DNA from: Candidatus Nomurabacteria bacterium
GTDB lineage: Bacteria > Patescibacteriota > Minisyncoccia > Phycocordibacterales > UBA9973
Reading direction: 5' to 3'
DNA: 64,000 nt
Assembly: GCA_026395965.1 (NCBI GenBank)
Contig: JAPLXS010000004.1
Coordinates: forward strand, 686 to 64,685
Shown here: positions 1 to 42,979 of the stretch, in pieces
How the letters are laid out: each line of letters begins with the position of its first letter
Position numbering within the stretch: position 1 is the first letter of the stretch
The notes under the pieces: generated by a model
Databases searched by the model: none
Told to the model about the DNA's origin: nothing
Seen by the model: the letters and a program-made list of their open reading frames with translations, nothing else
Position numbers and translations under genes: made by a program

Positions 1-235
1 TACTGGGTTGGCTTGCGTGTTTAATTCGAAAGACTTTTCATTATCAGCTATGCTGATTGAAAAGTACCTGGCTATGTAATAGACGAAAAGTGTATTCATG
101 GTCTCTTCTCTGTATTGTATTTCTTTATATAAATTTATTTATAGGACTCGTAATTTCACTCATATTATCACCTTGACAATTTAACCATAAAATGTATAAT
201 AAACAAAAATAAGTAAATTTTAAAAACAAAAAATA

Positions 236-28851: not shown

Positions 28852-31761
28852 TTAGAATTTTTTGATGATTATATCAATAAGTCGATTCAAATATTTATGA
28901 AAATCAGATATCTGAATTTTATTCTTATAATCTTTAAGTATTAATTCTTGGAGGGTACGCTTTGCTTCTTTTATAAATTCTTCTCGCTTAGATGAATCTT
29001 GCCAACCATCATCAAGAATATTTTCAAGACGAGATGTCATTTCTTTTATGAATTCTTTTTCAGTGCTCTCATCTGACCCAGAAAGAAATTCTTCCGAAAT
29101 AACATATAGTCCATATTCGTGGAGTGTGTATCCAAGTTCCTTTGCTTCTTCGGTCTTTGTTTTAATATCATTTAAGAGTTCATAATATCTTTTTATTCGC
29201 TCAGCAAGATCTATTTGGTGCTTCTCAAACTCTACCCTGATAGCTGTTAATCGTTCTCCAAAGCCCTTAAAAGCAGGGTGTGTGTCGATATTGATAGATA
29301 TTTCACGCTTAAGCATCTTTTCAAGATTTAAAGCTTTTTCTTCTTCAGGAAGTTTATCGAGTTTATTAAGAGTTGCAAGATCATGCACATTCAATTCTCT
29401 AAAGTTTTTAGTAATACCCTCATAGTCAATTTTATCTTGAATCAAGCTCTTAATTTTTACTCCGTAGTCAGCAAGAGAAAAAGCGTCTATTCCCTCGGCT
29501 TGAAATTCTTTACTAAATGCTAAATAAAAACTTGTAACCCATTCAAACTTTCTTAGGTAATCCATCAAGAATGGATCTGGTGAAAGTATTTCAAAAAGCA
29601 TTTTCAAGCGACCATATTTATCTTTAAAAAATTGTTGTTTACTTTCATTGTCAATGAATATTTTTAAACATCGACGTAGATTATCAATTGACGGATCCTC
29701 TATGTTTACACCCTCAAATAAACTCATAACTTCATCAAGCACATTAATAAAATCATCTTTAAGTCGATCGATATTTATCATTGCACTATCGACAATACTT
29801 TCGTCAAAATTCAGTGCATCATATAAATTTTTAGTCACACCATAATAGTCAATAATCTTTCCACACCCTTTGTTTGGGTAAACACGATTTGTGCGAGCGA
29901 TCGCCTGTAGAAGATTATGGTCACGAAGTGGTTTATCAAGATACATAACTTGCTCAACTGGTGCATCAAATCCAGTCAAAAGCATGTCACAAACAAGTAG
30001 AAATTTAAGTGGATTAGCTGAATCTTTAAACTGTTCAATTACTTTTTCTCGTTTTTGTTTGTTTGTATTATATTTTTTTAGATCATCATTATCACTATTT
30101 GGATCGCCGGGCGAATAGACTACCTCAGACCATTCTGGTGGTATAAGTTTATCAAGTAAATCTTTATATTTTGCTGTAGCTTCACGATCATAACAAACTA
30201 TCTGTGCTTTGAATCCGTTAGGTAAAACATAAAGTTTGTAATGTTCAACTATATCTTGAGATACTGCCTCCATTCTTTTGTCTAGCTTAACTAGAGCTTC
30301 TTTTTTACCATATCTCTTTGTAAGTAATTCTTTTTGAGCAGTATTAAGTTCAGAAGTAAGTTCATTGAACTGTGCATCAACCTTATCTTCGTCAATAAAG
30401 AATTTTGAAAGTCGTGCCTCATAAGTTACAGGCAAGGTCGCACCATCATCAATTGCTTGCTGAATAGAGTAATAATCTAGATATCTCTCACCGTCTTCAC
30501 CAAAATTTCTGTGAGTATTTGTTGTCAGTTTATCAATTGGAGTACCAGTAAATCCAAAAAAGAATGCATCTTTAAAAGCATTACGCATTTTAATAGCAGA
30601 GACACCTTCATTGTCTCGATGAGCTTCATCAGATAAAACGATAACATTACCCTCGATTTTTTCTATTTCCTCTAGCTCAGTAAACTTTTGAATTGTAGAG
30701 ATAAAAATACCTCGATCTGCTCCCTTAATTTTCTTTTCAAGATCTTTACGAGATTCAACACGGATCAAATTTTGACCACCCCATGCTTCAAATTCTTCAA
30801 AAACTTGATCATCAAGGTCAATACGATCAATAAGAATAAAAACTTTAGGATTTTTTAGTTCTAGATTATAACGAAGTTTCCACGCCGTAAAAAACATAGT
30901 AAGTGTTTTACCTGAACCCTGTGTGTGCCAAATAAGACCTTTCTTTACGTCACCATTTTTTACTCGTTCAACTATCTTATTACTTGCATACAATTGTTGA
31001 TAGCGAGCAATCTTTTTAGTAATTCCATCTTTTTTCTTTTCAAATACAATAAAGTTTTTAAGAATATCGAGCAGTTGTTCTTTATTTAAGAGAAAGTGTA
31101 AAGTAGAATCTATTTCTTCATCAAATAACTTTTTATCAGCCTGAGGATCTTCTCTCCAAGTTAGAAAATATTGTTTTGGAGAATACGTTGCTCCATAAAC
31201 TGTTTTAAGTCCATCTGTTGCAATATTAAAGCAGTTTGTGAGAAAGAGTTTTGGAGCAACTTTTTCATATCGCTTGATTTGATCAATAGCATTTTCAAAG
31301 TTTACTGAACTTGAAGCAGTAGGGCTTTTGGCTTCAATATCGCAAATTGGCATACCATTAAGAAAAACCAATACGTCAGGGCGAATGTTTTCAGTGTTAC
31401 CCTCAAAATAGAACTGGTTTGTTACAACGAATTTGTTATTTTCTATAATATCAAAATCTACTATTTTATAATCACGATTTTTACCAGTTTCTGGATCTTT
31501 GATATTTATACCATTTCGCAACGCCAGAAGAACTGCTTCGTTGGTATCAAGTTTTTTGGCTTCACGCATTACACTTATGGCGACTGTTTCATCTATGGAG
31601 TTAATTTTCTGAATTGCTTCAAGTAAGTGAGAACTAATAATGTACTCGTTTTCAAAAGTACGAAGTTTAGAAAATTCATCAGCAGAAATATACTCATAAC
31701 CGAGTTCCTTTATGAATTTTATTATATGATATTCAATTGTGTGTTGTTCGTTAAATTTCAT
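28852..31761 (-). CDS. hsdR: type I restriction enzyme R subunit HsdR
   Basis: N-terminal nuclease-like region, SF2 helicase Walker A HTQGSGKTLT and DEAH-like box, about 970 aa. Confidence 0.9.
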   Translation of the reverse strand: MKFNEQHTIEYHIIKFIKELGYEYISADEFSKLRTFENEYIISSHLLEAIQKINSIDETVAISVMREAKKLDTNEAVLLALRNGINIKDPETGKNRDYKIVDFDIIENNKFVVTNQFYFEGNTENIRPDVLVFLNGMPICDIEAKSPTASSSVNFENAIDQIKRYEKVAPKLFLTNCFNIATDGLKTVYGATYSPKQYFLTWREDPQADKKLFDEEIDSTLHFLLNKEQLLDILKNFIVFEKKKDGITKKIARYQQLYASNKIVERVKNGDVKKGLIWHTQGSGKTLTMFFTAWKLRYNLELKNPKVFILIDRIDLDDQVFEEFEAWGGQNLIRVESRKDLEKKIKGADRGIFISTIQKFTELEEIEKIEGNVIVLSDEAHRDNEGVSAIKMRNAFKDAFFFGFTGTPIDKLTTNTHRNFGEDGERYLDYYSIQQAIDDGATLPVTYEARLSKFFIDEDKVDAQFNELTSELNTAQKELLTKRYGKKEALVKLDKRMEAVSQDIVEHYKLYVLPNGFKAQIVCYDREATAKYKDLLDKLIPPEWSEVVYSPGDPNSDNDDLKKYNTNKQKREKVIEQFKDSANPLKFLLVCDMLLTGFDAPVEQVMYLDKPLRDHNLLQAIARTNRVYPNKGCGKIIDYYGVTKNLYDALNFDESIVDSAMINIDRLKDDFINVLDEVMSLFEGVNIEDPSIDNLRRCLKIFIDNESKQQFFKDKYGRLKMLFEILSPDPFLMDYLRKFEWVTSFYLAFSKEFQAEGIDAFSLADYGVKIKSLIQDKIDYEGITKNFRELNVHDLATLNKLDKLPEEEKALNLEKMLKREISINIDTHPAFKGFGERLTAIRVEFEKHQIDLAERIKRYYELLNDIKTKTEEAKELGYTLHEYGLYVISEEFLSGSDESTEKEFIKEMTSRLENILDDGWQDSSKREEFIKEAKRTLQELILKDYKNKIQISDFHKYLNRLIDIIIKKF

Positions 31762-31763
31762 AA

Positions 31764-33125
31764 TTATTCTGTTACACTCTTTGTTTGTTCCGGAGTTTGC
31801 TGAGTTGTTTGAGATTTTATTACATGGTTTTTAGCTCCAAAATTAAACCAACTTTTTACACCACCATATATTTCTTGAGTTCTGTCTTTATCTTCATATG
31901 GTTCTTTGTAAATTCTTTCTATTGAAGCAAGAGTAAATTGAAGTAATTCGTCTTTTTTATCAGAAAACTTGTCGCTCAAAAGTTTAATATATGCTTGAAG
32001 TGAGGTAGATAATACTGTTTTGAAAGCATACCTCTCTTCGTAATCACGTTCCATATTGTAGTTATGCGAACAAAGATACACAAGATAAATCAAAGGTGAT
32101 GTAAATAAGTAACGATACCAAGCATGAAAGTCTTTAAATCCATCAACTGCTTTATTCTGAAGATAATAAATATACAAGACAGAAGCACCCAATAAAATAA
32201 CACTACCCAATGTTGCATACTTCCAAAATCTGGCATTCTTATAAATTGTATCTCTACGCTTAACAAAAGAATCAGTAAGACTACTAGCAGTTACTAGATC
32301 AAGAGTTTCTCCAATACTTTCCTTAAATTCTAAACTCTTTGCTTTCATTCCCTCAATTTCTTTAACGGAAGATTCAGCACTTTGTTTTAATTCTCCAGAC
32401 TTTTCAGAAAGAGTTTTTATCTCAATAAATCGTTGATCAACACTTGTCTTTGTTTTTATAATTTCACTCTTTAAATCTGTTGCAATATTTAAAGTAGCCT
32501 GAATACCAATCTTCGGATCATCAACTTTTGTTTTAAGTGGGAGAAAATTAGTTGTATAGTAAGTTTCGATTTCTACGACTTTTTCTGTGATAGAAAGAAC
32601 AGTAGCATTTACCTTTTCGAGAGCAGTCTGAGAATCAACTTCAATCTGATTTATACTGTTCTTTAGTGCTGTTGCTTGATCTAACAAGGCTTGAAGTCCT
32701 GTTTGACCATCGTTGAGTTTGCTTTTTAAATCTGTAAATGTTCCATAGTAAGTCTCCAACTCTTGGATTTTGATATTTATGGCATTTGCTTTCTCTGTGA
32801 TTTGATTAAGTTCAGTTTGAGCATTTGTGTTTACTTGATCTATTTTATTTTTGAGATTTGTAGATTGATTAAATAATGCTTCCATTCCAGTACTACCGTC
32901 AGAAAGCTTCGTACGAATTTCAATAAAATTTGTGTGGTATAACTCAATCTCTTCAGATTTAGTAATAACACCAGCACTAAGAGCTTCAATTTTTTCTTTT
33001 TCTTTCTTTACATCTGCAATAAAACCCTCAAGCTCTTTTTTGAGAGCTTCTACATCAATTGTTGTTTGGTTTTTTATTTCTTCAGTTTCCATATAATTAA
33101 TTCTTAATTGTTCTAACTTTTCCAC
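31764..33125 (-). CDS. coiled-coil protein with three roughly 64-aa tandem repeats and a C-terminal 2-TM region; function unknown, embedded between hsdS and hsdR
   Basis: Repeats of the type KLSDGSTGMEALFNQSTNLKNKIDQ / KLNDGQTGLQALLDQATALKNSINQ / KVDDPKIGIQATLNIATDLKSEI; TM helices YATLGSVILLGASVLYIYYL and LFTSPLIYLVYLC; no NTPase motif. Confidence 0.6.
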   Translation of the reverse strand: MEKLEQLRINYMETEEIKNQTTIDVEALKKELEGFIADVKKEKEKIEALSAGVITKSEEIELYHTNFIEIRTKLSDGSTGMEALFNQSTNLKNKIDQVNTNAQTELNQITEKANAINIKIQELETYYGTFTDLKSKLNDGQTGLQALLDQATALKNSINQIEVDSQTALEKVNATVLSITEKVVEIETYYTTNFLPLKTKVDDPKIGIQATLNIATDLKSEIIKTKTSVDQRFIEIKTLSEKSGELKQSAESSVKEIEGMKAKSLEFKESIGETLDLVTASSLTDSFVKRRDTIYKNARFWKYATLGSVILLGASVLYIYYLQNKAVDGFKDFHAWYRYLFTSPLIYLVYLCSHNYNMERDYEERYAFKTVLSTSLQAYIKLLSDKFSDKKDELLQFTLASIERIYKEPYEDKDRTQEIYGGVKSWFNFGAKNHVIKSQTTQQTPEQTKSVTE

Positions 33126-34209
33126 TCAATAGATCCGACATTAATCCTTTTTTGAGTTTTATAAACTTATTTTTTAATTTCTTACTTATTAATATTTTTT
33201 TGTCTACCAAAGATAAAATCTCTGCTATTTTTACTTGTTCAACATATCTTGGCACGGCGACTAACTCTTTATGAACAATATTTCGATTAAGCGTTGGAAC
33301 CCCTGTGCCCGTTCCAAATCTTTTTAGATCAAAATTTTGAATTTTATAGTATACAAATTTTTCGTTATTTTTATGAAAATCCTTAACATAAAGTGTTGTA
33401 TTGTGAGGCCAAAAATCATTTTCTATATAAAAAACATTACCGAGTGTGCCACTTCTGCCTGTAACTACACCAGGAGATTTAATTTTTGTCTCGTTATGAT
33501 AATCAGTAATACCATTTGAAGTTACTAACGGATATAAACCGATTGTTCGATCTGGTACTGGTAAATCAAATCCTCTTTGCAAAGTCGCAAATTCTTCAAA
33601 GGTTTTTATTTCCCATTCTTCTGGGACATATCCAATTTTTGTTTTTTTAAATTTTTTATGATCTACACCCTTTGTAAAAAGGACAAACATTAGAGCTTTC
33701 TTTAGTTTTTCTGTTTGTAAAATAATTGAATCAATCTTTTGAATTTCAATATCTACACTAGATAAAATATTGGCAATATTTTTTTGCTCAGTTAATAATG
33801 GGATTATTATGCTCTGTTCTTGGTACTGAGAAATGTAATGTCTCTTATGATTTTCTACTTGAAAATTAGATGACTTGATCATTTCGTATATAAATTTCAA
33901 ATCAGTAGCATCGTCTATAGTTTTTAGAATTTTAATTGCAGATGATTTAATTTTAAAGTTAAAATCTACATACTTACTATCAGTGGTAAAATCATCAAAA
34001 ATAATTGCAGGAGTTTTTGTATAAATACCAAAATCTTCATCGGTATATCCAAGAATAAATGATTTATTTGCTGTTAAGACAGGTGTTTTTCCAGTAGGGG
34101 TATAAGCAGTACTTTCGACAATATAATTTCCTGGTTGCTCAAACGACAAAACTTCTTTAATTTTTTTTATCTCCCAACCTTTTGGAATTTTTGTGGTTAA
34201 TGTTTTCAT
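33097..34209 (-). CDS. hsdS: type I restriction-modification specificity subunit HsdS
   Basis: Two target-recognition domains each introduced by PxGWEx(K/V)...(E/F) (IPKGWEIKKIKEV and VPEEWEIKTFEEF) with conserved central and C-terminal helices; start chosen at MKTLTT (ATGA overlap with the upstream gene); the ORF track has an alternative start at 34272. Confidence 0.8.
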   Translation of the reverse strand: MKTLTTKIPKGWEIKKIKEVLSFEQPGNYIVESTAYTPTGKTPVLTANKSFILGYTDEDFGIYTKTPAIIFDDFTTDSKYVDFNFKIKSSAIKILKTIDDATDLKFIYEMIKSSNFQVENHKRHYISQYQEQSIIIPLLTEQKNIANILSSVDIEIQKIDSIILQTEKLKKALMFVLFTKGVDHKKFKKTKIGYVPEEWEIKTFEEFATLQRGFDLPVPDRTIGLYPLVTSNGITDYHNETKIKSPGVVTGRSGTLGNVFYIENDFWPHNTTLYVKDFHKNNEKFVYYKIQNFDLKRFGTGTGVPTLNRNIVHKELVAVPRYVEQVKIAEILSLVDKKILISKKLKNKFIKLKKGLMSDLLSGKVRTIKN

Positions 34210-35120
34210 ATGTTTCTTGATTGAACAGCTTTTATTAAATCTGAAATTGCTGAATTCAAAACTTGCAGACATATCTTTGCAGTATGTTCATCTGGGGCAA
34301 ACCCAGAAACAGCTTGTTCAAAAGGATGAACATAGTTACGAAAATCTCGCAATGCGTGGCTAAATTTTTTTACATCAAGACCCAGAAACCCTGTTTCGTT
34401 AGCAGTATTGATAAAGTTTTCAAGTGTCCAATCCTGAAAGGCTTTAATTTTCCCAATTTTATCTTTAGGACTTGAATTTGCTTGATTAAATTCCTTGGGA
34501 TATTTACTTGCGATACCAAGTAATAATCCTTCAAGTGTGCTACCTGCCATAAAAATAGAAGCAAGCGGAGCTTTATGGGCTATACATTGGCGTGATTCTT
34601 TAATTCTTTCTTTGAGAACTAACTCGATAACACTATCAAGTCCTAATTTTGCAATATCATTACTTTCAAAATCCTTTTTAAGAAATTCTTCTTCAGTGGG
34701 TAGCGTATTGTTTACATTATCTATAATTGGTTTTTTAGATTCTTTTACGAAAACTATAAATGGGTCTTTACCGCTAAACTCAATCTTCATATTTTCCATA
34801 AATAAAATATTATTCATGGACTTTGTAGCCATTTCAAGTTTTGTCATATCTGCTTTATATTCTCTAATATCAACAAGTCGAAGTACAACCTTTTCAAGAT
34901 CATCCAAGTTTCGGTCATTCATTTGCTTGAGCATTTCAAGCACCCACCATTTTCTAGTGGAACCATCATGAGAAGCGTTAATACCAACATTGTTAAAAAA
35001 TCTTGTTAAATAAGACGAAGATCGATATTGTGGATATTTTGTGGTTTCATCTCCACAAATAAAATCAGCCAAGGAATCTAGGGTTGCGTTATCAAATTTT
35101 TGTTTAATAAATCTTGCCAT
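34206..35120 (-). CDS. hypothetical protein embedded between hsdM and hsdS; possible HEPN-like R-x6-H motif
   Basis: C-terminal ALRDFRNYVHPFEQ; location typical of Abi/HEPN/anticodon-nuclease-type riders in type I R-M operons. Confidence 0.5.
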   Translation of the reverse strand: MARFIKQKFDNATLDSLADFICGDETTKYPQYRSSSYLTRFFNNVGINASHDGSTRKWWVLEMLKQMNDRNLDDLEKVVLRLVDIREYKADMTKLEMATKSMNNILFMENMKIEFSGKDPFIVFVKESKKPIIDNVNNTLPTEEEFLKKDFESNDIAKLGLDSVIELVLKERIKESRQCIAHKAPLASIFMAGSTLEGLLLGIASKYPKEFNQANSSPKDKIGKIKAFQDWTLENFINTANETGFLGLDVKKFSHALRDFRNYVHPFEQAVSGFAPDEHTAKICLQVLNSAISDLIKAVQSRNI

Positions 35121-35122
35121 AG

Positions 35123-36865
35123 TTAATACCCAAGTTTATCCAAAAAATTTTCGACATTGCCATCGACTTCGGTAAATTCTCTTTTAAGAAGTTTTATTTC
35201 TGCTCGTACTTTTTTGACATCAATAACTTCTTCTATCTCTGTAGAGTCGATATACTGTTTAATGTTTAAAGTGTACTTATTTTCTGCAATCTCAGAAAGA
35301 TCTACCACTCGTGCATATTTTTCGATCATCATATATCCATCATATGCTTTAATAATTTTTGCTATATCTTGAGGACGAAGACTATTCTGGTTTTTACCTT
35401 CAAGAAAATCTTTATCAGCATCTATAATTAAAATCTTTTCTTTTTTTTCTTTAGGTTTGTTTTTATTAAAAATTAAAATTACTGCAGGTATGCCCGTTCC
35501 ATAAAAAAGTTTTGATGGTAATGATACAATAGCTTCTATTAAGTCATTCTTAATAATCTGTTCACGAATACGTCCCTCGGCACCACCACGGAATAGAACG
35601 CCGTGAGGAAGCACAATACCTGCACGACCATTTTGATTCATTGATTTAATTATATGTAACATAAAAGCATAATCAGCGTTTTTATCAGGCGGAGCATCAT
35701 AACCATCTAGGCGACCAAACTTTGTTTTAAATGCTTCATATTCCCAATCTTTTATTGAATAGGGTGGATTTGCTACTACAATATCAAAGGTTTGAAGCCC
35801 ACCTTGTTGATTAAGAAATTGCGGATTAGCAAGAGTATCACCTCGACGAATATCTGCACTATCAAGCCCATGAAGAAACATATTAATTCGAGCAATTGCA
35901 AAAGTTGCTAGTTCTTGTTCTTGTCCATAAAGATAAAGTGTCTTTGCAATTTTTTCACCAGATTTCTGTTTTAAATAATCATATGATTCTAAAAGGAAAC
36001 CGCCTGATCCAACAGTTGGATCATAAATATGATCTTTCTGGTGTGGTTTAAGAATACCAAGAATCACTCGTTCAACTTCACGAGGAGTATAGAAACTTCC
36101 ACCTTTTTTACCAGCATCGGCAGCGAATTGTTTAATTAAATATTCATATGCATCACCAAGTAAATCAGAACTTATGTATGTATTACCAAAATTATATTGC
36201 GAAAAATGGTTAATAAGTCTTTGAAGTGTTTCATTTGGAAATCTATCTTTATTTGCAAAATCTAAATCATCAAAAATTTTATCAAGCTTGGGACTATTAG
36301 CATTTACTAATTTATCAAAAATATTATTTAACTTTTGCCCAATGCTTTCTGCTTGTTCGGTAACTTTATCCCATCTACAATCTTTGGGTACTTGAAAGCG
36401 ATGATTATAATCTGCACATGCGATAGACTTGTCGTTATATTCTTTCATCACAGTGTTGTATTCTTCATCCCACACATCACTCATTCGTTTATAAAAAAGA
36501 AGACCGAAGATATATTTCTTATAATCAGAACTGTCAATTTTACCTCGAAGAATATCTGCACTTTTCCAAAGAAATGATTCAAGTTGAGGAAGTGTGAGTT
36601 TACTACCCATTTTATCTACAATGGCTTCTATGTCTTGAGGTCGATATTTTCGATCCTTACGAGGACCTACACGAAGAGGAACGAGGGTGCCGTCTTTCTC
36701 CCAGTTTCGTAAAGTATCTTGATGAATAGAGAAAATCTCTGCTACCTGACTGATAGATAGTAATTCTGGCATGCCTTTAAGTTTTGATTGTATATCTTTT
36801 CGCATAATTGACAGTAGTAGTCTATCAGATTCCAAATATAAAGTCAAGTGTTCATAGGTTTTCAT
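35123..36865 (-). CDS. hsdM: type I R-M N6-adenine DNA methyltransferase HsdM with an N-terminal MerR/Xis-like HTH extension
   Basis: NPPY motif (VVANPPYSIKDW), HsdM_N helix LESFLWKSADILRG; N-terminal ISQVAEIFSIHQDTLRNWEKDG HTH. Confidence 0.9.
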   Translation of the reverse strand: MKTYEHLTLYLESDRLLLSIMRKDIQSKLKGMPELLSISQVAEIFSIHQDTLRNWEKDGTLVPLRVGPRKDRKYRPQDIEAIVDKMGSKLTLPQLESFLWKSADILRGKIDSSDYKKYIFGLLFYKRMSDVWDEEYNTVMKEYNDKSIACADYNHRFQVPKDCRWDKVTEQAESIGQKLNNIFDKLVNANSPKLDKIFDDLDFANKDRFPNETLQRLINHFSQYNFGNTYISSDLLGDAYEYLIKQFAADAGKKGGSFYTPREVERVILGILKPHQKDHIYDPTVGSGGFLLESYDYLKQKSGEKIAKTLYLYGQEQELATFAIARINMFLHGLDSADIRRGDTLANPQFLNQQGGLQTFDIVVANPPYSIKDWEYEAFKTKFGRLDGYDAPPDKNADYAFMLHIIKSMNQNGRAGIVLPHGVLFRGGAEGRIREQIIKNDLIEAIVSLPSKLFYGTGIPAVILIFNKNKPKEKKEKILIIDADKDFLEGKNQNSLRPQDIAKIIKAYDGYMMIEKYARVVDLSEIAENKYTLNIKQYIDSTEIEEVIDVKKVRAEIKLLKREFTEVDGNVENFLDKLGY

Positions 36866-36900: not shown

Positions 36901-38223
36901 TTATTCTATACTAATCTTTTTATTTGAGAATATAATTTTACTCTTTAAACACCCCAATAACTCTCTTTTCTCGACATCTTGCCCCTCTCTTAAAATGTAC
37001 TTAGCATAATTCCGTATATCAATATCCTTAATTACTATTTTTTCTTTAATCCCAAGAACAGACATTTGAAATTTCTTTATCCTTTCCACCTCTGCCTTAA
37101 TTTTTTCTTTTATCCCTATCTCGTCAATATCTATTTTTTCTATTAGTTCCTCAAATTGTTTAAGCAAATCAATTTCATTAATATAGCCACATTTACAATC
37201 TCTGTCTTTTGACTTATTACAACCATAATAAACATGGCGGTGAACATTTCCATTCTTTTGTTTTTTAAATTTCTCATCTGGTGTCACACCCGATCCGCAT
37301 AACCCACAAGTCATTAATTTAGTAAAAGCGAACTCTTTACCCTCAGTTCGGATAACCTGACTTTTCATTTGTAACTGTACCTCATTAAATAATTCTTTAG
37401 TTATTATTGATTCATGTTTTCCTGTATACCAGTTTCCACTATTTTTAGGATATTCAAATACTCCGTAATAGAAATGATTTTGAAGAATTGTATAAATATT
37501 ACCTAAACTTAAATTTTTGTTTCCGCCAGCTGTTTTTAAATTCAAATCAAATTTTAACCAATGATATATTTTTCTCCCACTCCATTTTTCATAAGCAACT
37601 TTCTCAAACATTTTTTTAATAATTGGTGCTCGGTTTGGATCTAGAATAACTTGGCATTTTCTATCTATACGTTTTTCACTTAAATATCCAGTTGGAGGAG
37701 GTCCAGGCCATAATCCCATTTCAACTCTAGTCCTTAGTCCACGTTTTACATTTATACTTTTATTGTCATTCTCAAGTTTTGCCTGAGAACATAAAATCAT
37801 TAAAAGAAATTTTTCATTAGGAGAATTCTGAAACGATTGTCCGTAAGTTCGTATTTGTAAAAGTAATTTTTGATCCATTAAATCTACGAGTGATCCAAGG
37901 TCTCCTGCATTTCTACTTAATCTATCTGGTGCCCATGTGAGTATTCCATTAAACCGTCCACGCCGTATATCTTCCAGTATTTCCTTATATACAGGTCTTT
38001 CTCCAGACTCTTTAGCTGAATGAGATTCTCTTCTAATTTCTACAATTTCAAGTCCCTCCTTATCTGCCAACTGAAGCATTTCTTTTACTTGAGATTCGAT
38101 ACTTAAAATTTGTTTTTCTTCCGACTCTGTTGACTTACGAGCGTATAATACATATCTAATTTTTACTGTTGGAATAACAGCCATGGTGCCTATTAATCCA
38201 ACATTATTTATTTGTGTTTCCAT
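36901..38223 (-). CDS. large serine recombinase (resolvase/invertase catalytic domain, recombinase domain and Zn ribbon)
   Basis: YARKSTESEEKQILSIESQ catalytic Ser region, RLSRN motif, C-terminal CGLCGS...CKCG zinc ribbon. Confidence 0.85.
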   Translation of the reverse strand: METQINNVGLIGTMAVIPTVKIRYVLYARKSTESEEKQILSIESQVKEMLQLADKEGLEIVEIRRESHSAKESGERPVYKEILEDIRRGRFNGILTWAPDRLSRNAGDLGSLVDLMDQKLLLQIRTYGQSFQNSPNEKFLLMILCSQAKLENDNKSINVKRGLRTRVEMGLWPGPPPTGYLSEKRIDRKCQVILDPNRAPIIKKMFEKVAYEKWSGRKIYHWLKFDLNLKTAGGNKNLSLGNIYTILQNHFYYGVFEYPKNSGNWYTGKHESIITKELFNEVQLQMKSQVIRTEGKEFAFTKLMTCGLCGSGVTPDEKFKKQKNGNVHRHVYYGCNKSKDRDCKCGYINEIDLLKQFEELIEKIDIDEIGIKEKIKAEVERIKKFQMSVLGIKEKIVIKDIDIRNYAKYILREGQDVEKRELLGCLKSKIIFSNKKISIE

Positions 38224-38565
38224 ACCTAATGATGTCAGAGAAAAGGTCTTCTGCTAAGCTATCGCTTGTTGGCAACTTGTTGGTAACTTCCTCTGATATT
38301 TTAAGCTATTGCGATAGAATGGGCTTTGAATAATATGGTCGAAGTGATATTATTTAATTACAACTAAATATATAAAGTAAGTAGCCTAAACCTTTGGTAA
38401 CAAAGGCATGGTGAATAAGAGCGGATAAAGCATAAAGAACTCCTAGTCAGAGCTCGGCTTTATCCGCCCATACTTGGAAACGAGTATGTGTAGCTGAAAA
38501 GCTACAAGCTGGCTGGGAGCTTTTTGCGTCTTAGCCAGATTTATAACAAAACGCAAAAAATAACT
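38224..38565. promoter_or_regulatory. unusually long hairpin-rich non-coding region adjacent to the serine recombinase (candidate att/junction or structured leader)
   Basis: 300 bp non-coding in a compact genome; stems gcggataaagc/gctttatccgc, catact/agtatg, ctggct/agccag, cctttg/caaagg; 11-bp direct repeat cttgttggYaa. Confidence 0.3.
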
Positions 38566-39027
38566 ATGAGTGATCAAACACACAGTGAAAAAGTTTGGGA
38601 CAAAATCTTGAGTCCTAATGAAGAAGTTAAATATGAGTTCTCAATTGGAAAGCAGTATATAAAAACATATTTGATAATTTGGGCGATAATAAGTATACCT
38701 TTTGTTTTTGCAGTTGTTGGATTATTTATGTTTGCTTTAGCATTTTTGTATTTAAAAATATATTTACCAAAAGCAAATATCTACGGATTTACTAATAAGA
38801 GAGTACTGATACATAGAGGATTCTTTTCTACTGACTTAGTCAGTGTAGACTACAACAAAATTACTGATGTTACTGTTCGAGTATCTTTCTTAGATAAGAC
38901 ATTCACAAAGAGTGGACAGATATGTATTAATACAGCAGGTGGAATGGGTAAAGAAATAATCTTACAGCATGTAGCTAACCCATATGAAATTAAGAAAAAG
39001 TTGGACGGGTTAAGAGATGATAAGTAA
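38566..39027 (+). CDS. membrane protein with a bacterial PH (bPH_2/YdbS-like) domain
   Basis: Two TM helices followed by TNKRVLIHRGFFSTDLVSVDYNKITDVTV; the ORF track starts at an alternative TTG at 38524. Confidence 0.6.
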   Translation: MSDQTHSEKVWDKILSPNEEVKYEFSIGKQYIKTYLIIWAIISIPFVFAVVGLFMFALAFLYLKIYLPKANIYGFTNKRVLIHRGFFSTDLVSVDYNKITDVTVRVSFLDKTFTKSGQICINTAGGMGKEIILQHVANPYEIKKKLDGLRDDK

Positions 39028-39728
39028 TGAACATTATCTTAACTTGGAATATACGGCACGGCGGGGGCACGAGGGTAAATAAAATAATTGAAACTCTCAA
39101 GGGTCATACTGACGCTACGACCATTATTTTAACTGAGTTTAGGAATAACGATAATGCTTTACCAATACAAGAGGCACTCAAAGAACTTGGTTTCATTTAT
39201 CAATTCAAGGCACAGACTGAAATCAATAAAAATTCAGTTTTAATCGTTTCCAAAGAGAATTTTAAATACAAACTATTTCCTGAACTTACGAATCACTCCG
39301 AGCGTGTAGTAAAAGTCTATAATGATAACTATTCAATCTATGGTTGTTACTTCCCTGGAATGGATGACAAGAAATATGTGTTTGATTTCTTACTAAATGA
39401 GATTGAGAAAAACCCCAATGAGAAAATTATTATCACAGGAGATATTAATACTGGGAAACATTATATAGATGAACAGGGAGCAACCTTTGCTCATTCAGCG
39501 TATATCAACAAAATTGAAGAAAGTAATTTATTTGACGCATGGAGATATATTCACAACGACAAGAAAGACTTCAGTTGGTACAGTAGTGCGGGAAATGGAT
39601 TTAGACTAGATCACTTTTTTGTTCATAATGATTTAAAACCAAATGTTGTAAGTTGTGAATATATTCACCAATATAGAGAAGACAAGATTACAGATCATTC
39701 GATGATGGTGCTGACGTTAAGAAATTAA
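39027..39728 (+). CDS. endonuclease/exonuclease/phosphatase (EEP) family protein
   Basis: N-terminal LTWNIRHGGG, catalytic D/H near the C-terminus (ITDHSMMVL); ATGA overlap with the upstream gene. Confidence 0.7.
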   Translation: MNIILTWNIRHGGGTRVNKIIETLKGHTDATTIILTEFRNNDNALPIQEALKELGFIYQFKAQTEINKNSVLIVSKENFKYKLFPELTNHSERVVKVYNDNYSIYGCYFPGMDDKKYVFDFLLNEIEKNPNEKIIITGDINTGKHYIDEQGATFAHSAYINKIEESNLFDAWRYIHNDKKDFSWYSSAGNGFRLDHFFVHNDLKPNVVSCEYIHQYREDKITDHSMMVLTLRN

Positions 39729-40237
39729 TTATTTCCATATGCTTTCAACGCTTTTGTTTCTGCATCTTCAGTAGTTTCTAATTTTTCTGGTATCGGCATG
39801 GGAGCTAATTTAATTGTATATTCGATATTTTCTGTCTTAACTTCTTGTATGTCTTGCTTGTCACAATTAAACCAATCCTGCTCAAACTTTTTAAGTTTAA
39901 CTTTGTCAGGTATCAGATAACTAAGATCTTCTTCACTACGATATGTTCTTAGCACTCTCCTGTATTTAGGATTTCTGTGCACGAGATAAAATTTGGCTGC
40001 GTTCAAATCATTGTCTTGAATACCTCTTGCAACGACACTTTCTGCTCCGTCACTTAAAAGACTGTCACCCTCAGCTTGAGCTTCATCAGCTTTTTTAGCA
40101 AATCCAGGAATATCTTTACGCCATTGGTAATAAGTTTGACGAGATACATTCAATTTTCTACAAGCCGAACCGATAATCGGATTTGTTCTTAACTCATCTA
40201 TAAATAATTGATTGAGTTTATGCTTTTTCATCGCCAC
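39725..40237 (-). CDS. HTH protein, phage terminase small subunit-like
   Basis: ACRKLNVSRQTYYQWRKD HTH; sits next to a ParB-methylase as in phage packaging modules. Confidence 0.4.
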   Translation of the reverse strand: MAMKKHKLNQLFIDELRTNPIIGSACRKLNVSRQTYYQWRKDIPGFAKKADEAQAEGDSLLSDGAESVVARGIQDNDLNAAKFYLVHRNPKYRRVLRTYRSEEDLSYLIPDKVKLKKFEQDWFNCDKQDIQEVKTENIEYTIKLAPMPIPEKLETTEDAETKALKAYGNN

Positions 40238-41507
40238 TAATTATTACCGCTTTCTTGCCAGTCATATGCTCCCAGCGTTTTATGATCAAATCACAAAACA
40301 CTGGCTCTAGTTCACATCCATAGACTGTTCGACCTAATTGTTCTGCACAGAGGAGTGTTGAACCTGAACCCAAGAAACTATCAAGAATAATGTCACCAAC
40401 TCTGGTACAGCGTTTAATTGCTTTCTCGTGGAGTGTTATGGGCTTACTAGTGGCATGTTCATATTCTTTACCTGATAGTCTTTTAGCAGTCCAAATATCA
40501 ATGTATGAATCTACTTGCTCTAAAAGTTCATTGCCTGTACCAAGTTCTTGATTCATTACTTCGTTGTACTTTGTCATGTCTTCGGCTAAGTATGGATTTT
40601 TTCTAACTGAGTATATGCACGGCTCATACACTTTGTTAAAAGCAACGCCAGGTGTTGGGTTCTGATTGTTCTTTAACCACAAACACACTCGCTTGTTTAC
40701 TAGTCTAACGTCTCGATATATTTGTTGAATCATTCCGATATACACTTGGTCGCAGTAATAGAATACATGAGTATCAGGATGTGATACTAGAAGTCCTGCT
40801 TCTAAACTATCTTTGATAAATTTGTGATATTCAGTAAATGATCTAGCGTCATTTACTTCTCCTCCATAGTCGCCGTCACCACCAATTCCGCCCGCATAGT
40901 CTACGTTCAGATTATACACAGGATCCGAGTAAATCATTGACGATCTGTCACCACCGAACAGTTTTTGCAGATTCTCTTTTTTAGTTGAATCACCGCATAG
41001 TATCTTATGTGACCCAAGTAAAACAGTATCACCCAATTTAACAACTGGATTTTTGTTTTTCTTGATTTCTTTTTCAACATCTATATCATCCTCAACAACT
41101 TTCTTGTCCTCATCCATTAATTTTGATAATTCTATTGAATCAAAACCAATATCAAGGAGAAGTGGTGTATCAAACGATTTGAGTAAATCAAAGTCCCAAG
41201 TACCGCCTAGAGCATTTGAAGCTATTAAGTACCTCTTAGCTTCGTCTTCTGATAATTTTCTGTTGGGTACTCGGCAGTCAATTAATTCGTCACCACGACC
41301 AAGGAGTTGCATTGCTTTTAGTCGCTGATGACCCGCCAGAATTTTACCGTCAGTATCAATGACAGGTATTTCGACTAAATTAAACTTTTTTAAACTTTTC
41401 TTGAGATCTGACATTTGTTTGTCAGATATTTTTCGAGGGTTTACCTCTTGAGGCACAAGATCAACGATTCTTTTTTGAATGGTTGACCATTCTAGTAGTG
41501 TTTCCAT
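40218..41507 (-). CDS. ParB-like nuclease domain fused to a DNA methyltransferase (N4/N6 MTase, PF01555-like)
   Basis: ParB N-terminal GHQRLKA box; MTase DPPY-like motif SDPVYN and AdoMet motif LDSFLGSGST. Confidence 0.8.
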   Translation of the reverse strand: METLLEWSTIQKRIVDLVPQEVNPRKISDKQMSDLKKSLKKFNLVEIPVIDTDGKILAGHQRLKAMQLLGRGDELIDCRVPNRKLSEDEAKRYLIASNALGGTWDFDLLKSFDTPLLLDIGFDSIELSKLMDEDKKVVEDDIDVEKEIKKNKNPVVKLGDTVLLGSHKILCGDSTKKENLQKLFGGDRSSMIYSDPVYNLNVDYAGGIGGDGDYGGEVNDARSFTEYHKFIKDSLEAGLLVSHPDTHVFYYCDQVYIGMIQQIYRDVRLVNKRVCLWLKNNQNPTPGVAFNKVYEPCIYSVRKNPYLAEDMTKYNEVMNQELGTGNELLEQVDSYIDIWTAKRLSGKEYEHATSKPITLHEKAIKRCTRVGDIILDSFLGSGSTLLCAEQLGRTVYGCELEPVFCDLIIKRWEHMTGKKAVIISGDEKA

Positions 41508-41827
41508 AAATATATGAAATTATCTAATAATCGTAAATCCTATATATTTATAGGTTTCAGTATCTACGCTACTGGTGATAATTTATATTTATGGTTATTA
41601 AGTATATTTTATGCTAATACGACATTAAGCATATGCAAACGACTTAACCATATATTAAATATAACAGCATCTTTAATGCGGTCAAGAAAATGACAATATA
41701 ATTAGCATTAGAATATACTTAGTTAAAAATGGCAAATATTTTGTATCGGATACAAAGAAAATAGCTATATTTTAAAAGGAAATCATATATCTATCAGATT
41801 ATAAAAAAATTTGATATAATAAAAATT

Positions 41828-42979
41828 ATGAAAAATAATATAAATGATTTGTTTAATGATTTCTTAAAAAGCTATGATTCTGAGACTAAAGACTCCCTAT
41901 GGCTCGAGCAAAGTTCTAAATTTAAAGACTTTTGGAACAATAGGGTTATGTCTGATTCTAAGGAAGATTTAAGCGATTCAGAAATAGACGAAATCGTTAA
42001 AATTCTTGATAGAAACGGCAAAGGTAATACTTTTGGTTGTGAAGCTGTTGCCAAGGCAATGGTAGCTCAGGGAGCTTGGAGAAGAATGTTTAATGAATTA
42101 AAGAATAAGAAACACCTTGGAAAATGCTTAGATGAGATATTTAAAAATTCTGGTGACGCTAGGGCAAATTCAATTAATGAGCTCTATAAAGTAAATGAGG
42201 GTAATAAAAACGGACTAACTGGACCGAGTGGCAACGCCGTAAATGCTATGATTTTTGCATATAACCCCTCTAATAATTTAAGTATTATCTCTATTAAAGA
42301 CAGAAAAAAGTTATTAGAATATTTTAAGTTAGAAAATCATACAGATTTTGAAAATGATGCTATTGGGGAAAAGATAGTTAAATCCAATGAGGATCTTGTC
42401 AACGGATTCAAAAGCTTAAATATATATGGTTCCCCTAGAACAATAAGTACGTTTCTTTATACACCTGCAGTTAAATCTTTATGGAAAGATGAACCCGAAA
42501 ACACTTTTATCAGTTCTCCCGAAGAACAAGAAGAAGCAATTGAAATTCAAATAGAAGAAAAGCAAGACAATACGGATAGGACACTCTTTTACATGGAAAA
42601 AGAGCTTGAAAATTTCTTGATAAAAAACTGGGAAAAAACTGAATTAGGTAAAAAATATGATTTGATTGATGAAGACGGAAAATTTAGTCAACAATATCCC
42701 ACAGGAGTAGGACCAATAGATATTTTAGTGAAAGACAAAAAAGACGGAACATATGTCGTTCTTGAATTAAAAAGAAACCAAACGAGCGACGATACCATAG
42801 GTCAATTGGCTAGATACATGGGTTGGCTTGAAGAAAATAAGACAAACGGAAAACCAACGAGAGGGATAATTATTACAGGAGCATATGACAAAAGACTCTA
42901 TTATGCTTCAAAAAAGATAGTGGGTTGTGAAATATACATATACCAAGTTGATTTTAAGCTTAAGGAGTTTAAGGAATAA
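41828..42979 (+). CDS. PD-(D/E)xK nuclease superfamily protein (NucS / DUF4263-Shedu-like C-terminal domain)
   Basis: GPIDILV ... VVLELKRN ... QLARY motif block in the last about 100 aa; variable N-terminal region. Confidence 0.5.
   Translation: MKNNINDLFNDFLKSYDSETKDSLWLEQSSKFKDFWNNRVMSDSKEDLSDSEIDEIVKILDRNGKGNTFGCEAVAKAMVAQGAWRRMFNELKNKKHLGKCLDEIFKNSGDARANSINELYKVNEGNKNGLTGPSGNAVNAMIFAYNPSNNLSIISIKDRKKLLEYFKLENHTDFENDAIGEKIVKSNEDLVNGFKSLNIYGSPRTISTFLYTPAVKSLWKDEPENTFISSPEEQEEAIEIQIEEKQDNTDRTLFYMEKELENFLIKNWEKTELGKKYDLIDEDGKFSQQYPTGVGPIDILVKDKKDGTYVVLELKRNQTSDDTIGQLARYMGWLEENKTNGKPTRGIIITGAYDKRLYYASKKIVGCEIYIYQVDFKLKEFKE

Follow-up and report, generated by a model that had tools for sequence, protein, structure and literature searches.

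Ribonucleases (RNases) of the HEPN superfamily nested in restriction-modification (R-M) operons are an established theme, and the basic idea is not new; a 2013 survey had already linked at least 16 HEPN clades to R-M systems (Anantharaman et al. 2013, PMC3710099). The anticodon nuclease PrrC, encoded in the type Ic R-M locus EcoprrI, is the model case of a HEPN-type RNase that stays latent and acts as a second line behind restriction, and for DUF4145 (PF13643), frequent occurrence "in operon with R-M" and fusion to diverse N-terminal domains have been reported (PMC3710099). The RNase fold of DUF4145 has been shown experimentally in RAZR / PD-T7-4, a single-protein RNase that is activated by phage proteins and in which R146A and H154A abolish defense (PMC13017515). 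According to the "guilt by embedding" principle, genes nested in type I R-M, BREX, and DISARM often prove to be independent defense systems; one example, HEC-08 (a DUF3644 HEPN domain with zinc fingers), is found in Hma systems and needs its motif His for defense (Payne et al. 2024 preprint). The text and supplements of that preprint that were searched hold no mention of DUF4145 or PF13643. Here, we analyze X, a gene of 304 amino acids (aa) located between hsdM and hsdS in a window of 64,000 nucleotides (nt) from a Candidatus Nomurabacteria bacterium (contig JAPLXS010000004.1 of GenBank assembly GCA_026395965.1), to which all coordinates refer unless another locus is named. An initial annotation of this DNA had proposed a HEPN-like motif in X, noted HEPN/Abi-type proteins as known passengers of type I R-M operons, and suggested that, if the motif is real, X is an RNase toxin that the R-M complex holds in check or that cooperates with it.

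We favor, with moderate confidence, the reading that X is a two-domain latent HEPN endoribonuclease effector of the abortive-infection (Abi) type, autonomous and carried here as an operon passenger. By analogy with characterized HEPN enzymes, the C-terminal domain (C-domain, residues ∼160–304) would act as a metal-independent endoribonuclease, with an active site formed by H265, R258/R261, N262, and E197 and probably completed across a homodimer. The N-terminal domain (N-domain, residues 1–125) is the predicted regulatory or sensor part, which would hold the RNase latent until an infection cue; RNA cleavage would then halt translation in the infected cell. X is probably self-contained because most family members live outside R-M operons. 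In this lineage, it appears to have settled in a type I R-M operon as a stable passenger, coupled in translation to its neighbors; this position may give co-expression and co-transfer with the R-M genes and a second line behind restriction. Its features are given below; the sequence, open reading frame (ORF), and junction coordinates were read directly from the DNA of the window.

34206..35120, minus strand: X ORF, 304 aa from an ATG start, with an N-terminal domain, a linker, and a C-terminal predicted DUF4145-like HEPN domain.
35118..35125, minus strand: hsdM/X junction, with the hsdM TAA stop at 35125..35123, a gap at 35121-35122, and the X ATG at 35120..35118.
34206..34209, minus strand: ATGA overlap of X and hsdS, with the X TGA stop at 34208..34206 and the hsdS ATG at 34209..34207.
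34746..35120, minus strand: N-terminal domain, residues 1-125, five helices and a beta-hairpin (alignments A1 and A4, model).
34209..34643, minus strand: C-terminal HEPN-like domain, about residues 160-304 (modeled secondary structure, Pfam, Foldseek).
34530..34532, minus strand: codon of E197, an invariant acidic residue in helix 2 and candidate active-site helper.
34326..34349, minus strand: predicted RNase motif R258-D-F-R261-N262-Y-V-H265 at the end of helix 3, codons read from the sequence.

The location between hsdM and hsdS and the ATGA overlap with hsdS, both given in the initial annotation, are confirmed by the ORF and by Pfam identification of the neighbors. The spacing between hsdM and X had been put at 3 nt; the DNA has 2 nt. 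In locus L093, a contig that encodes an identical 304-aa X, gene callers take ATG 34209..34207 as the hsdS start and thereby predict a 370-aa HsdS. An alternative in-frame ATG upstream, at 34272, would add 21 residues and create a 67-nt overlap with the end of X. Tight junctions are retained in related operons (L001, L091, L093, L095, and L097), with a gap of 1–2 nt between hsdM and X if the genes are adjacent, and the 4-nt overlap of X with hsdS is also present in L001, L091, L093, and L095.

The predicted active site gains its weight from comparison across homologs. The R-x6-H noted near the C-terminus corresponds to R258-x6-H265, within residues 256–269 (ALRDFRNYVHPFEQ), and fits the HEPN pattern R-x4-6-H. 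The match alone is weak because R-x4-6-H is present at least once in 45% of composition-preserving shuffles of X, and on the same grounds we rejected the argument that the motif by itself proves a HEPN domain; the signal is the conservation of residues 258–265 in homologs. A second R-x4-6-H in X, R177–H182 (RQCIAH), consists of residues outside the conserved columns of alignment A1. Among 138 representatives that are at most 50% identical to one another, H265 and E197 are invariant (138 of 138), and R261 and N262 are each kept in 137. R258 is present in 132, R172 in 134, and E175 in 133. The loss of R and H among homologs, which had been named as grounds for abandoning the motif, is thus not what the family displays. 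Position 259, the polar residue after R258 (D259 in X), is D, E, or N in 124 of the 138. In alignment A1 (42 sequences, 43–94% identity to X), R258, F260, R261, N262, H265, P266, and Q269 are invariant, and the family form of the motif is R-[DEN]-[FY]-R-N-x-[IV]-H-P.

The residues occupy positions expected for a HEPN domain. Hallmarks of the superfamily (Pfam clan CL0291) are an R-x4-6-H that closes helix 3, with a polar residue following the Arg, a second conserved acidic residue in helix 2, often as E-x3-[KR], and an insert that separates helices 2 and 3 (Anantharaman et al. 2013, PMC3710099). An AlphaFold2 model of X, built from the 42-sequence alignment, has a predicted local distance difference test score (pLDDT) of 89.7 and consists of two domains that a linker of low confidence (residues 133–139) connects. 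In the modeled C-domain, helix 1 spans residues 163–181, helix 2 185–206, an insert 207–232, a distorted helix 3 233–263, and helix 4 278–303. Consequently, all of the hallmarks have counterparts in X: R258-x6-H265 at the end of helix 3, the polar D259, E197 in helix 2, and the insert at 207–232. The context of E197 is E-G-L-L-L, not E-x3-[KR].

Pfam and structural comparisons point to DUF4145. A Pfam scan of X yielded a sole match, to DUF4145 (E 5.9e-4, residues 174–266 against profile positions 1–71). Matches to this family with E < 0.01 recur in 5 of 42 close homologs and in 34 of the 138 diverse representatives, with a best E of 8.3e-7. None of the remaining Pfam families was matched by more than one of the 138, and one member also touches PF05168 (HEPN). 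In seven proteins inspected singly, the DUF4145 match begins at profile position 1–2 and covers the same region each time. In a bona fide DUF4145 protein (P0268, 54.6 bits), residue numbers equal profile positions plus 107, which places its motif His, H177, at profile position 70. The alignment of X to DUF4145 ends at profile position 71, which is P266, and judging from these end points, H265 would share the column (∼70) of that His. HEPN domains make up ∼16 of the top 23 hits in a Foldseek search of the PDB, including HI0074, TT1696 (probability 0.98, target-normalized template modeling [TM] score 0.67), TM0613, ST0689, HepT toxins, the sacsin HEPN domain, and Csm6. By structure identifier, HEPN matches include 1ufb, 2hsb, 1o3u, and 1wol; the best are 1ufb (probability 0.98, target-normalized TM score 0.67) and AF_0298 (target-normalized TM score 0.68). 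Taken together, the C-terminal half of X looks like a HEPN domain from a divergent branch that is sister to DUF4145.

Relative to described proteins, X shares with DUF4145 the order of elements, with an acidic residue in helix 2 followed by a basic-x2-x-N...H motif, and DUF4145 is the only Pfam family that is detected for X and recurs among its relatives. It differs in the motif, R-x2-R-N-x2-H in X versus a typical [RK]-x2-G-N-x3-H, which is one residue longer and has Gly in place of the second Arg. Like RAZR, X is a single polypeptide with an N-terminal recognition domain and a C-terminal DUF4145-type HEPN domain (both predicted in the case of X), and in loci L006 and L014, a RAZR-like gene is directly downstream of an X family member. 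Unlike RAZR, X has no Cys4 zinc ribbon, and its N-domain is helical with a beta-hairpin and one conserved Cys. RAZR has R-x7-H (R146/H154), whereas X has R-x6-H, and X neither matches a PADLOC model nor aligns significantly with RAZR-like proteins in hhalign. With HEC-08, X has in common that a HEPN protein is encoded by a single gene nested in a multigene defense system; the HEPN family (DUF3644) and the host systems (Hma) are different.

The N-domain has no recognized relatives in the collections searched. Residues 1–125 have no match in Pfam, and the Pfam models AbiJ-NTD, ApeA_NTD1, and DpnII-MboI, which represent partners named in the HEPN survey (PMC3710099), do not detect it. Modeled alone, the domain reaches a pLDDT of 92.7 and a predicted TM score of 0.85, and a Foldseek search of the PDB with it found no fold match (all TM scores < ∼0.3, probability ≤ 0.23). 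Residues invariant in alignments A1 and A4 include C22, G23, D24, P30, Y32, R33, H51, T55, R56, K57, and W59. C22 is the sole invariant Cys of the N-domain and, in A1, of the whole protein, and there is no Cys4 pattern.

Both domains occur in other combinations. The N-domain is joined to other C-termini, as in the 393-aa protein P0222 and in P0236, which has a hydrophobic transmembrane tail, and the C-domain follows other N-regions, namely a GYVLDFS-type domain, tetratricopeptide repeats, and helix-turn-helix (HTH) domains. Mixing and matching of domains has been described for sensor-effector Abi proteins, for example, in AbiJ-NTD/HEPN combinations (PMC3710099), and the modularity of X, with a C-domain behind many N-regions and an N-domain before other C-termini, is typical of such proteins. 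In a sister architecture, the same HEPN-like domain is located behind an N-domain of ∼90 aa for which there is no Pfam model (40 of 147 representatives, e.g., P0140, P0145, and P0147). The signature of the sister N-domain is GYVLDFS..F..FF...I.I....Y...G.SKA.RLR.FW. Alignment of the GYVLDFS-type domain with the X N-domain in hhalign gave an E-value of 0.0028 and a probability of 11%, which is suggestive only; the two domains may be related.

The family is large and widely distributed. A word-indexed search found 1505 homologs of X, nearly all ∼300 aa and full length, from Patescibacteria (the candidate phyla radiation, CPR), Actinomycetota, Bacteroidota, and other phyla. One of the full-length homologs carries the label "DUF4145 domain-containing protein" in UniRef. 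When 1.84 billion cluster representatives (50% identity) were searched exhaustively with an HMMER profile, 2704 matched with E ≤ 1e-3, 413 of them with E ≤ 1e-30. Architectures were counted for the 147 new representatives among the 150 matches listed: 46 are full length, 85 have only the C-domain, and 5 only the N-domain.

Genomic contexts suggest that X does not depend on R-M genes across the family. A scan of one genome per species (185,579 species genomes) identified 497 family loci, and contexts were counted for the best 80 of these, with R-M genes judged by phmmer using queries from the window and three loci. Co-directional R-M genes are present within 5 kb in 21 of the 80 loci, adjacent in 12, and absent from 59. 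We therefore rejected an obligate R-M partner for the whole family. Since R-M genes are missing from most loci, the family in general needs no R-M complex to be tolerated, and with three-quarters of family loci in this state, X must be tolerated and regulated alone. The R-M types that are linked to X are type I, IIG-like, type III Res-Mod, and type ISP-like. Where both are adjacent, X usually starts 1–4 nt after the methyltransferase gene. Distant members are often 3–4 nt downstream of such a gene, which is IIG-like in six loci (a 927-aa N6_Mtase/Eco57I protein) and a type III mod in two. In the type ISP locus, X is 353 nt downstream of the methyltransferase gene, with a small ORF between them.

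The X family lies in defense islands. Two of the contexts recur: in L003 (6991-8906), a CAP12-PCTIR TIR gene is 20 nt upstream of X and an OLD-TOPRIM ATPase gene is nearby, and L004 (186-3344) has a conserved, tight three-gene cassette in which X comes after a gene for a 263-aa protein and before one for a 488-aa protein, both without a Pfam match. A KAP NTPase gene beside an Eco57I/TaqI_C-type methylase gene neighbors another relative, and Shedu SduA_C, nSTAND3, AAA_13, ApeA-HEPN, and UvrD genes are neighbors in further loci. In L006 (8001-10194; WWE3, CPR) and likewise in L007, L008, and L014, the X relative is followed within 23 nt by a RAZR-like gene and then by an HNH nuclease gene. The RAZR-like neighbor in L006 is a zinc-ribbon DUF4145 protein of 222 aa (54.6 bits). 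Loci of this kind have two different DUF4145-type HEPN genes side by side. Defense-gene neighbors, together with the 59 of 80 loci without R-M genes, argue that X is tolerated and functional alone.

Several results weigh against our reading of X as an autonomous HEPN RNase. The initial HEPN annotation stands at the level of distant homology plus fold, through DUF4145 as the only Pfam match, the conserved R and H, and a well-scored model with a HEPN-dominated list of structural matches. The DUF4145 score of X, 20.3 bits, is below the gathering threshold of 23.1, and the Foldseek search of the PDB gave no significant match, with every E-value ≥ 0.68 (none ≤ 1e-3). In hhalign, comparison of the family profile with 14 RAZR-like DUF4145 proteins was nonsignificant (E 0.11). 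A deeper profile of the C-domain against the RAZR-like set gave an E of 0.054, also nonsignificant, in an alignment that pairs helix 1, helix 2, E197, and "LRDF/VKDI" sensibly. PADLOC models do not match X. The R-to-H spacing of X differs by one residue from that of RAZR-type DUF4145, and the most conserved Arg, R261, is only x3 from H265, outside the canonical x4-6. The literature searched holds no activity, toxicity, or defense data on any family member. Lastly, the constant hsdM-X-hsdS order among relatives with at least 65% identity could mean real dependence on an R-M complex and not simple carriage as a passenger.

In its other searches, X had no match in NCBIfam, only a 0.091 match in PHROGs, and no significant match among the viral structures of BFVD. 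Sequence and profile searches of PDB chains with X returned noise only (WD-repeat designs; FAM118B with E 0.37).

Dependence on the R-M complex would follow if X were a guard like PrrC, the stronger form of the reading in the initial annotation, which we regard as possible and as the foremost alternative, with a probability well short of even. X would bind either the HsdM2-HsdS core or the complete R-M enzyme and thereby be silenced; disabling or remodeling of the complex by an anti-restriction factor of a phage would then free X to cleave tRNA or other RNA. Within the clade of the window, this alternative is favored by the conserved, translationally coupled hsdM-X-hsdS arrangement. Both junctions indicate coupling (2 nt from hsdM, ATGA with hsdS), and X is fixed between hsdM and hsdS of closely related type I operons in all nine contexts examined with at least 65% identity (the window, L001/L011, L019, L091, and L093–L097), while the slot between hsdS and hsdR swaps its cargo freely. 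The identity to X is 94% in L091, 72% in L094, and 65% in L001/L011, L019/L097, L095, and L096; L093 encodes the same protein. Small genes, one or two per operon, separate hsdM from X in L095 and L096 and X from hsdS in L094; L094 has two of them, and its contig ends within the gene upstream of X. At 54% identity, the pattern is mixed: L012, in which hsdM and X are separated by a Shedu SduA_C gene, keeps the order hsdM-X-hsdS, and the WWE3 locus L014 lacks R-M genes. The tendency of distant X genes to start 3–4 nt after methyltransferase genes of other R-M types is also in line with a guard, and there is precedent in PrrC-EcoprrI and in R-M-linked HEPN domains proposed to work in this way (PMC3710099).

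Other observations set X apart from PrrC. Both are HEPN-type RNase genes (predicted in X) embedded in a type I R-M operon. PrrC and RloC have an N-terminal ABC-type ATPase (AAA_13-like); X has no such regulatory domain, and no ATPase family is detected in it at E ≤ 0.1. The prrC gene is located between hsdS and hsdR, whereas X is located between hsdM and hsdS. PrrC is found almost exclusively in type I R-M loci, whereas the X family is mostly found elsewhere, as in the 59 loci described above. A conserved gene order can also arise when a mobile operon is inherited as a unit. Silencing of X by R-M proteins as in PrrC is plausible and is favored only in part by the genomic contexts; we continue to favor the autonomous effector.

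A broader version of the guard is more doubtful. X would be a general R-M guard whose N-domain is a new sensor that docks on the methyltransferase core of R-M enzymes, and the HEPN RNase would monitor whether the modification and restriction machinery is intact or is attacked by anti-restriction proteins. The suggestion is made because X comes immediately after the methyltransferase gene in R-M loci of three types (I, IIG-like, and III) and 353 nt after it in the ISP locus. If true, it would extend the PrrC principle well beyond one Escherichia coli system, and R-M-free copies would be guards that turned autonomous or act in trans with R-M systems elsewhere in the genome.

It is quite improbable that X is a noncatalytic accessory or regulatory subunit, in which a HEPN-like domain binds RNA, DNA, or protein and modulates expression, assembly, or specificity of the R-M enzyme. 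Some HEPN families are binders, such as MtlR and the nucleotidyltransferase-associated HEPN domains (PMC3710099). X is also between, and coupled to, both genes of the methyltransferase core, and the extreme conservation of its N-domain is as expected for binding to a conserved partner. However, HEPN domains of that kind typically lose R...H (PMC3710099), and a noncatalytic role is unlikely because the catalytic-type residues H265, R261, N262, and E197 are essentially invariant in the 138 representatives; the majority of family members, moreover, are not beside R-M genes. Least probable of all, by a small step, is that the C-terminal half is an unrelated helical domain and that R-x6-H and the weak DUF4145 matches are coincidental, as the shuffles, the sub-threshold Pfam score, and the nonsignificant hhalign and Foldseek values would allow, given the recurrence of DUF4145 matches in 34 of 138 relatives independently and of no other family in more than one, their common start and coverage in the seven inspected proteins, the overwhelming share of HEPN domains among the best structural matches, and the location of conserved residues where HEPN active-site residues are expected.

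What is new is the delineation of a large uncharacterized subfamily, its variant motif, an unrecognized N-domain, and a fixed position between hsdM and hsdS in one clade. No PADLOC, NCBIfam, or Pfam model captures the family above threshold. For a new single-gene system of abortive infection, the X family is a clean candidate, and the clade with X locked in place between hsdM and hsdS makes it tractable to test whether R-M complexes commonly control latent RNases.

The operon in which X resides and the genes that border it are as follows.

35123..36865, minus strand: hsdM, 580 aa (Pfam N6_Mtase 2.7e-106, HsdM_N 5.6e-27).
HsdM residues ∼35-85, minus strand: N-terminal MerR-type HTH fusion (Pfam MerR_1 2.2e-8 at residues 37-81; HTH_17).
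33097..34209, minus strand: hsdS, 370 aa from the coupled ATG (Pfam Methylase_S 5.5e-22, two stretches).
31764..33125, minus strand: 453-aa coiled-coil protein with C-terminal hydrophobic segments, between hsdS and hsdR (weak coiled-coil/SMC-like matches only).
28852..31761, minus strand: hsdR (Pfam SWI2_SNF2 5.5e-69, HSDR_N 7.5e-35, T1R_D3-like, T1RH-like_C).
28280..28849, minus strand: YgjP-like metallopeptidase gene, last of the operon (Pfam YgjP-like 6e-43).
36901-38223, minus strand: large serine recombinase (Resolvase, Recombinase, and Zn_ribbon_recom), upstream of hsdM.
27997-28068, plus strand: tRNA-Gln gene, just past the YgjP-like end of the R-M operon.

The MerR-type HTH fusion on HsdM is common to L001, L091, L093, L096, and L097 and could be a built-in transcriptional regulator of the operon. 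A YgjP-like gene follows hsdR in every related operon whose contig reaches that far. Just 3' of this gene in the window, a perfect 15-bp stem with a 7-nt loop at 28218-28254 looks like the operon terminator. The tRNA-Gln gene at one end and the recombinase at the other suggest a mobile island. No convincing direct repeats resembling attachment sites were found to link tRNA-Gln (27997-28068) with the recombinase end, GC content is uniform at ∼32%, and in L091 the recombinase has the opposite orientation.

A second cargo position, this one hypervariable, lies between hsdS and hsdR and is filled by different genes in each related operon.

Window, 31764-33125, minus strand: 453-aa coiled-coil/transmembrane protein, no confident family.
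L001, 10138-11190: PIN_12.
L097, 8050-8904: DUF3800.
L095, 4991-6553: OLD-TOPRIM/AAA_15 ATPase.
L096, 8107-9202: DUF3892 and Bro-N.
L094: 447-aa protein without a Pfam match; a KAP NTPase-like gene is located between X and hsdS.
L091, 6243-7782: Lactamase_B-like protein and a 211-aa protein.

Further defense- or mobile-type genes adjoin the island at 38524-42979 of the window. They encode a bPH_2 (bacterial PH domain) protein, an endonuclease/exonuclease/phosphatase-family protein, an HTH protein, a 429-aa N6_N4 DNA methylase that is apparently an orphan, and a 383-aa NucS_C/PDDEXK nuclease-like protein.

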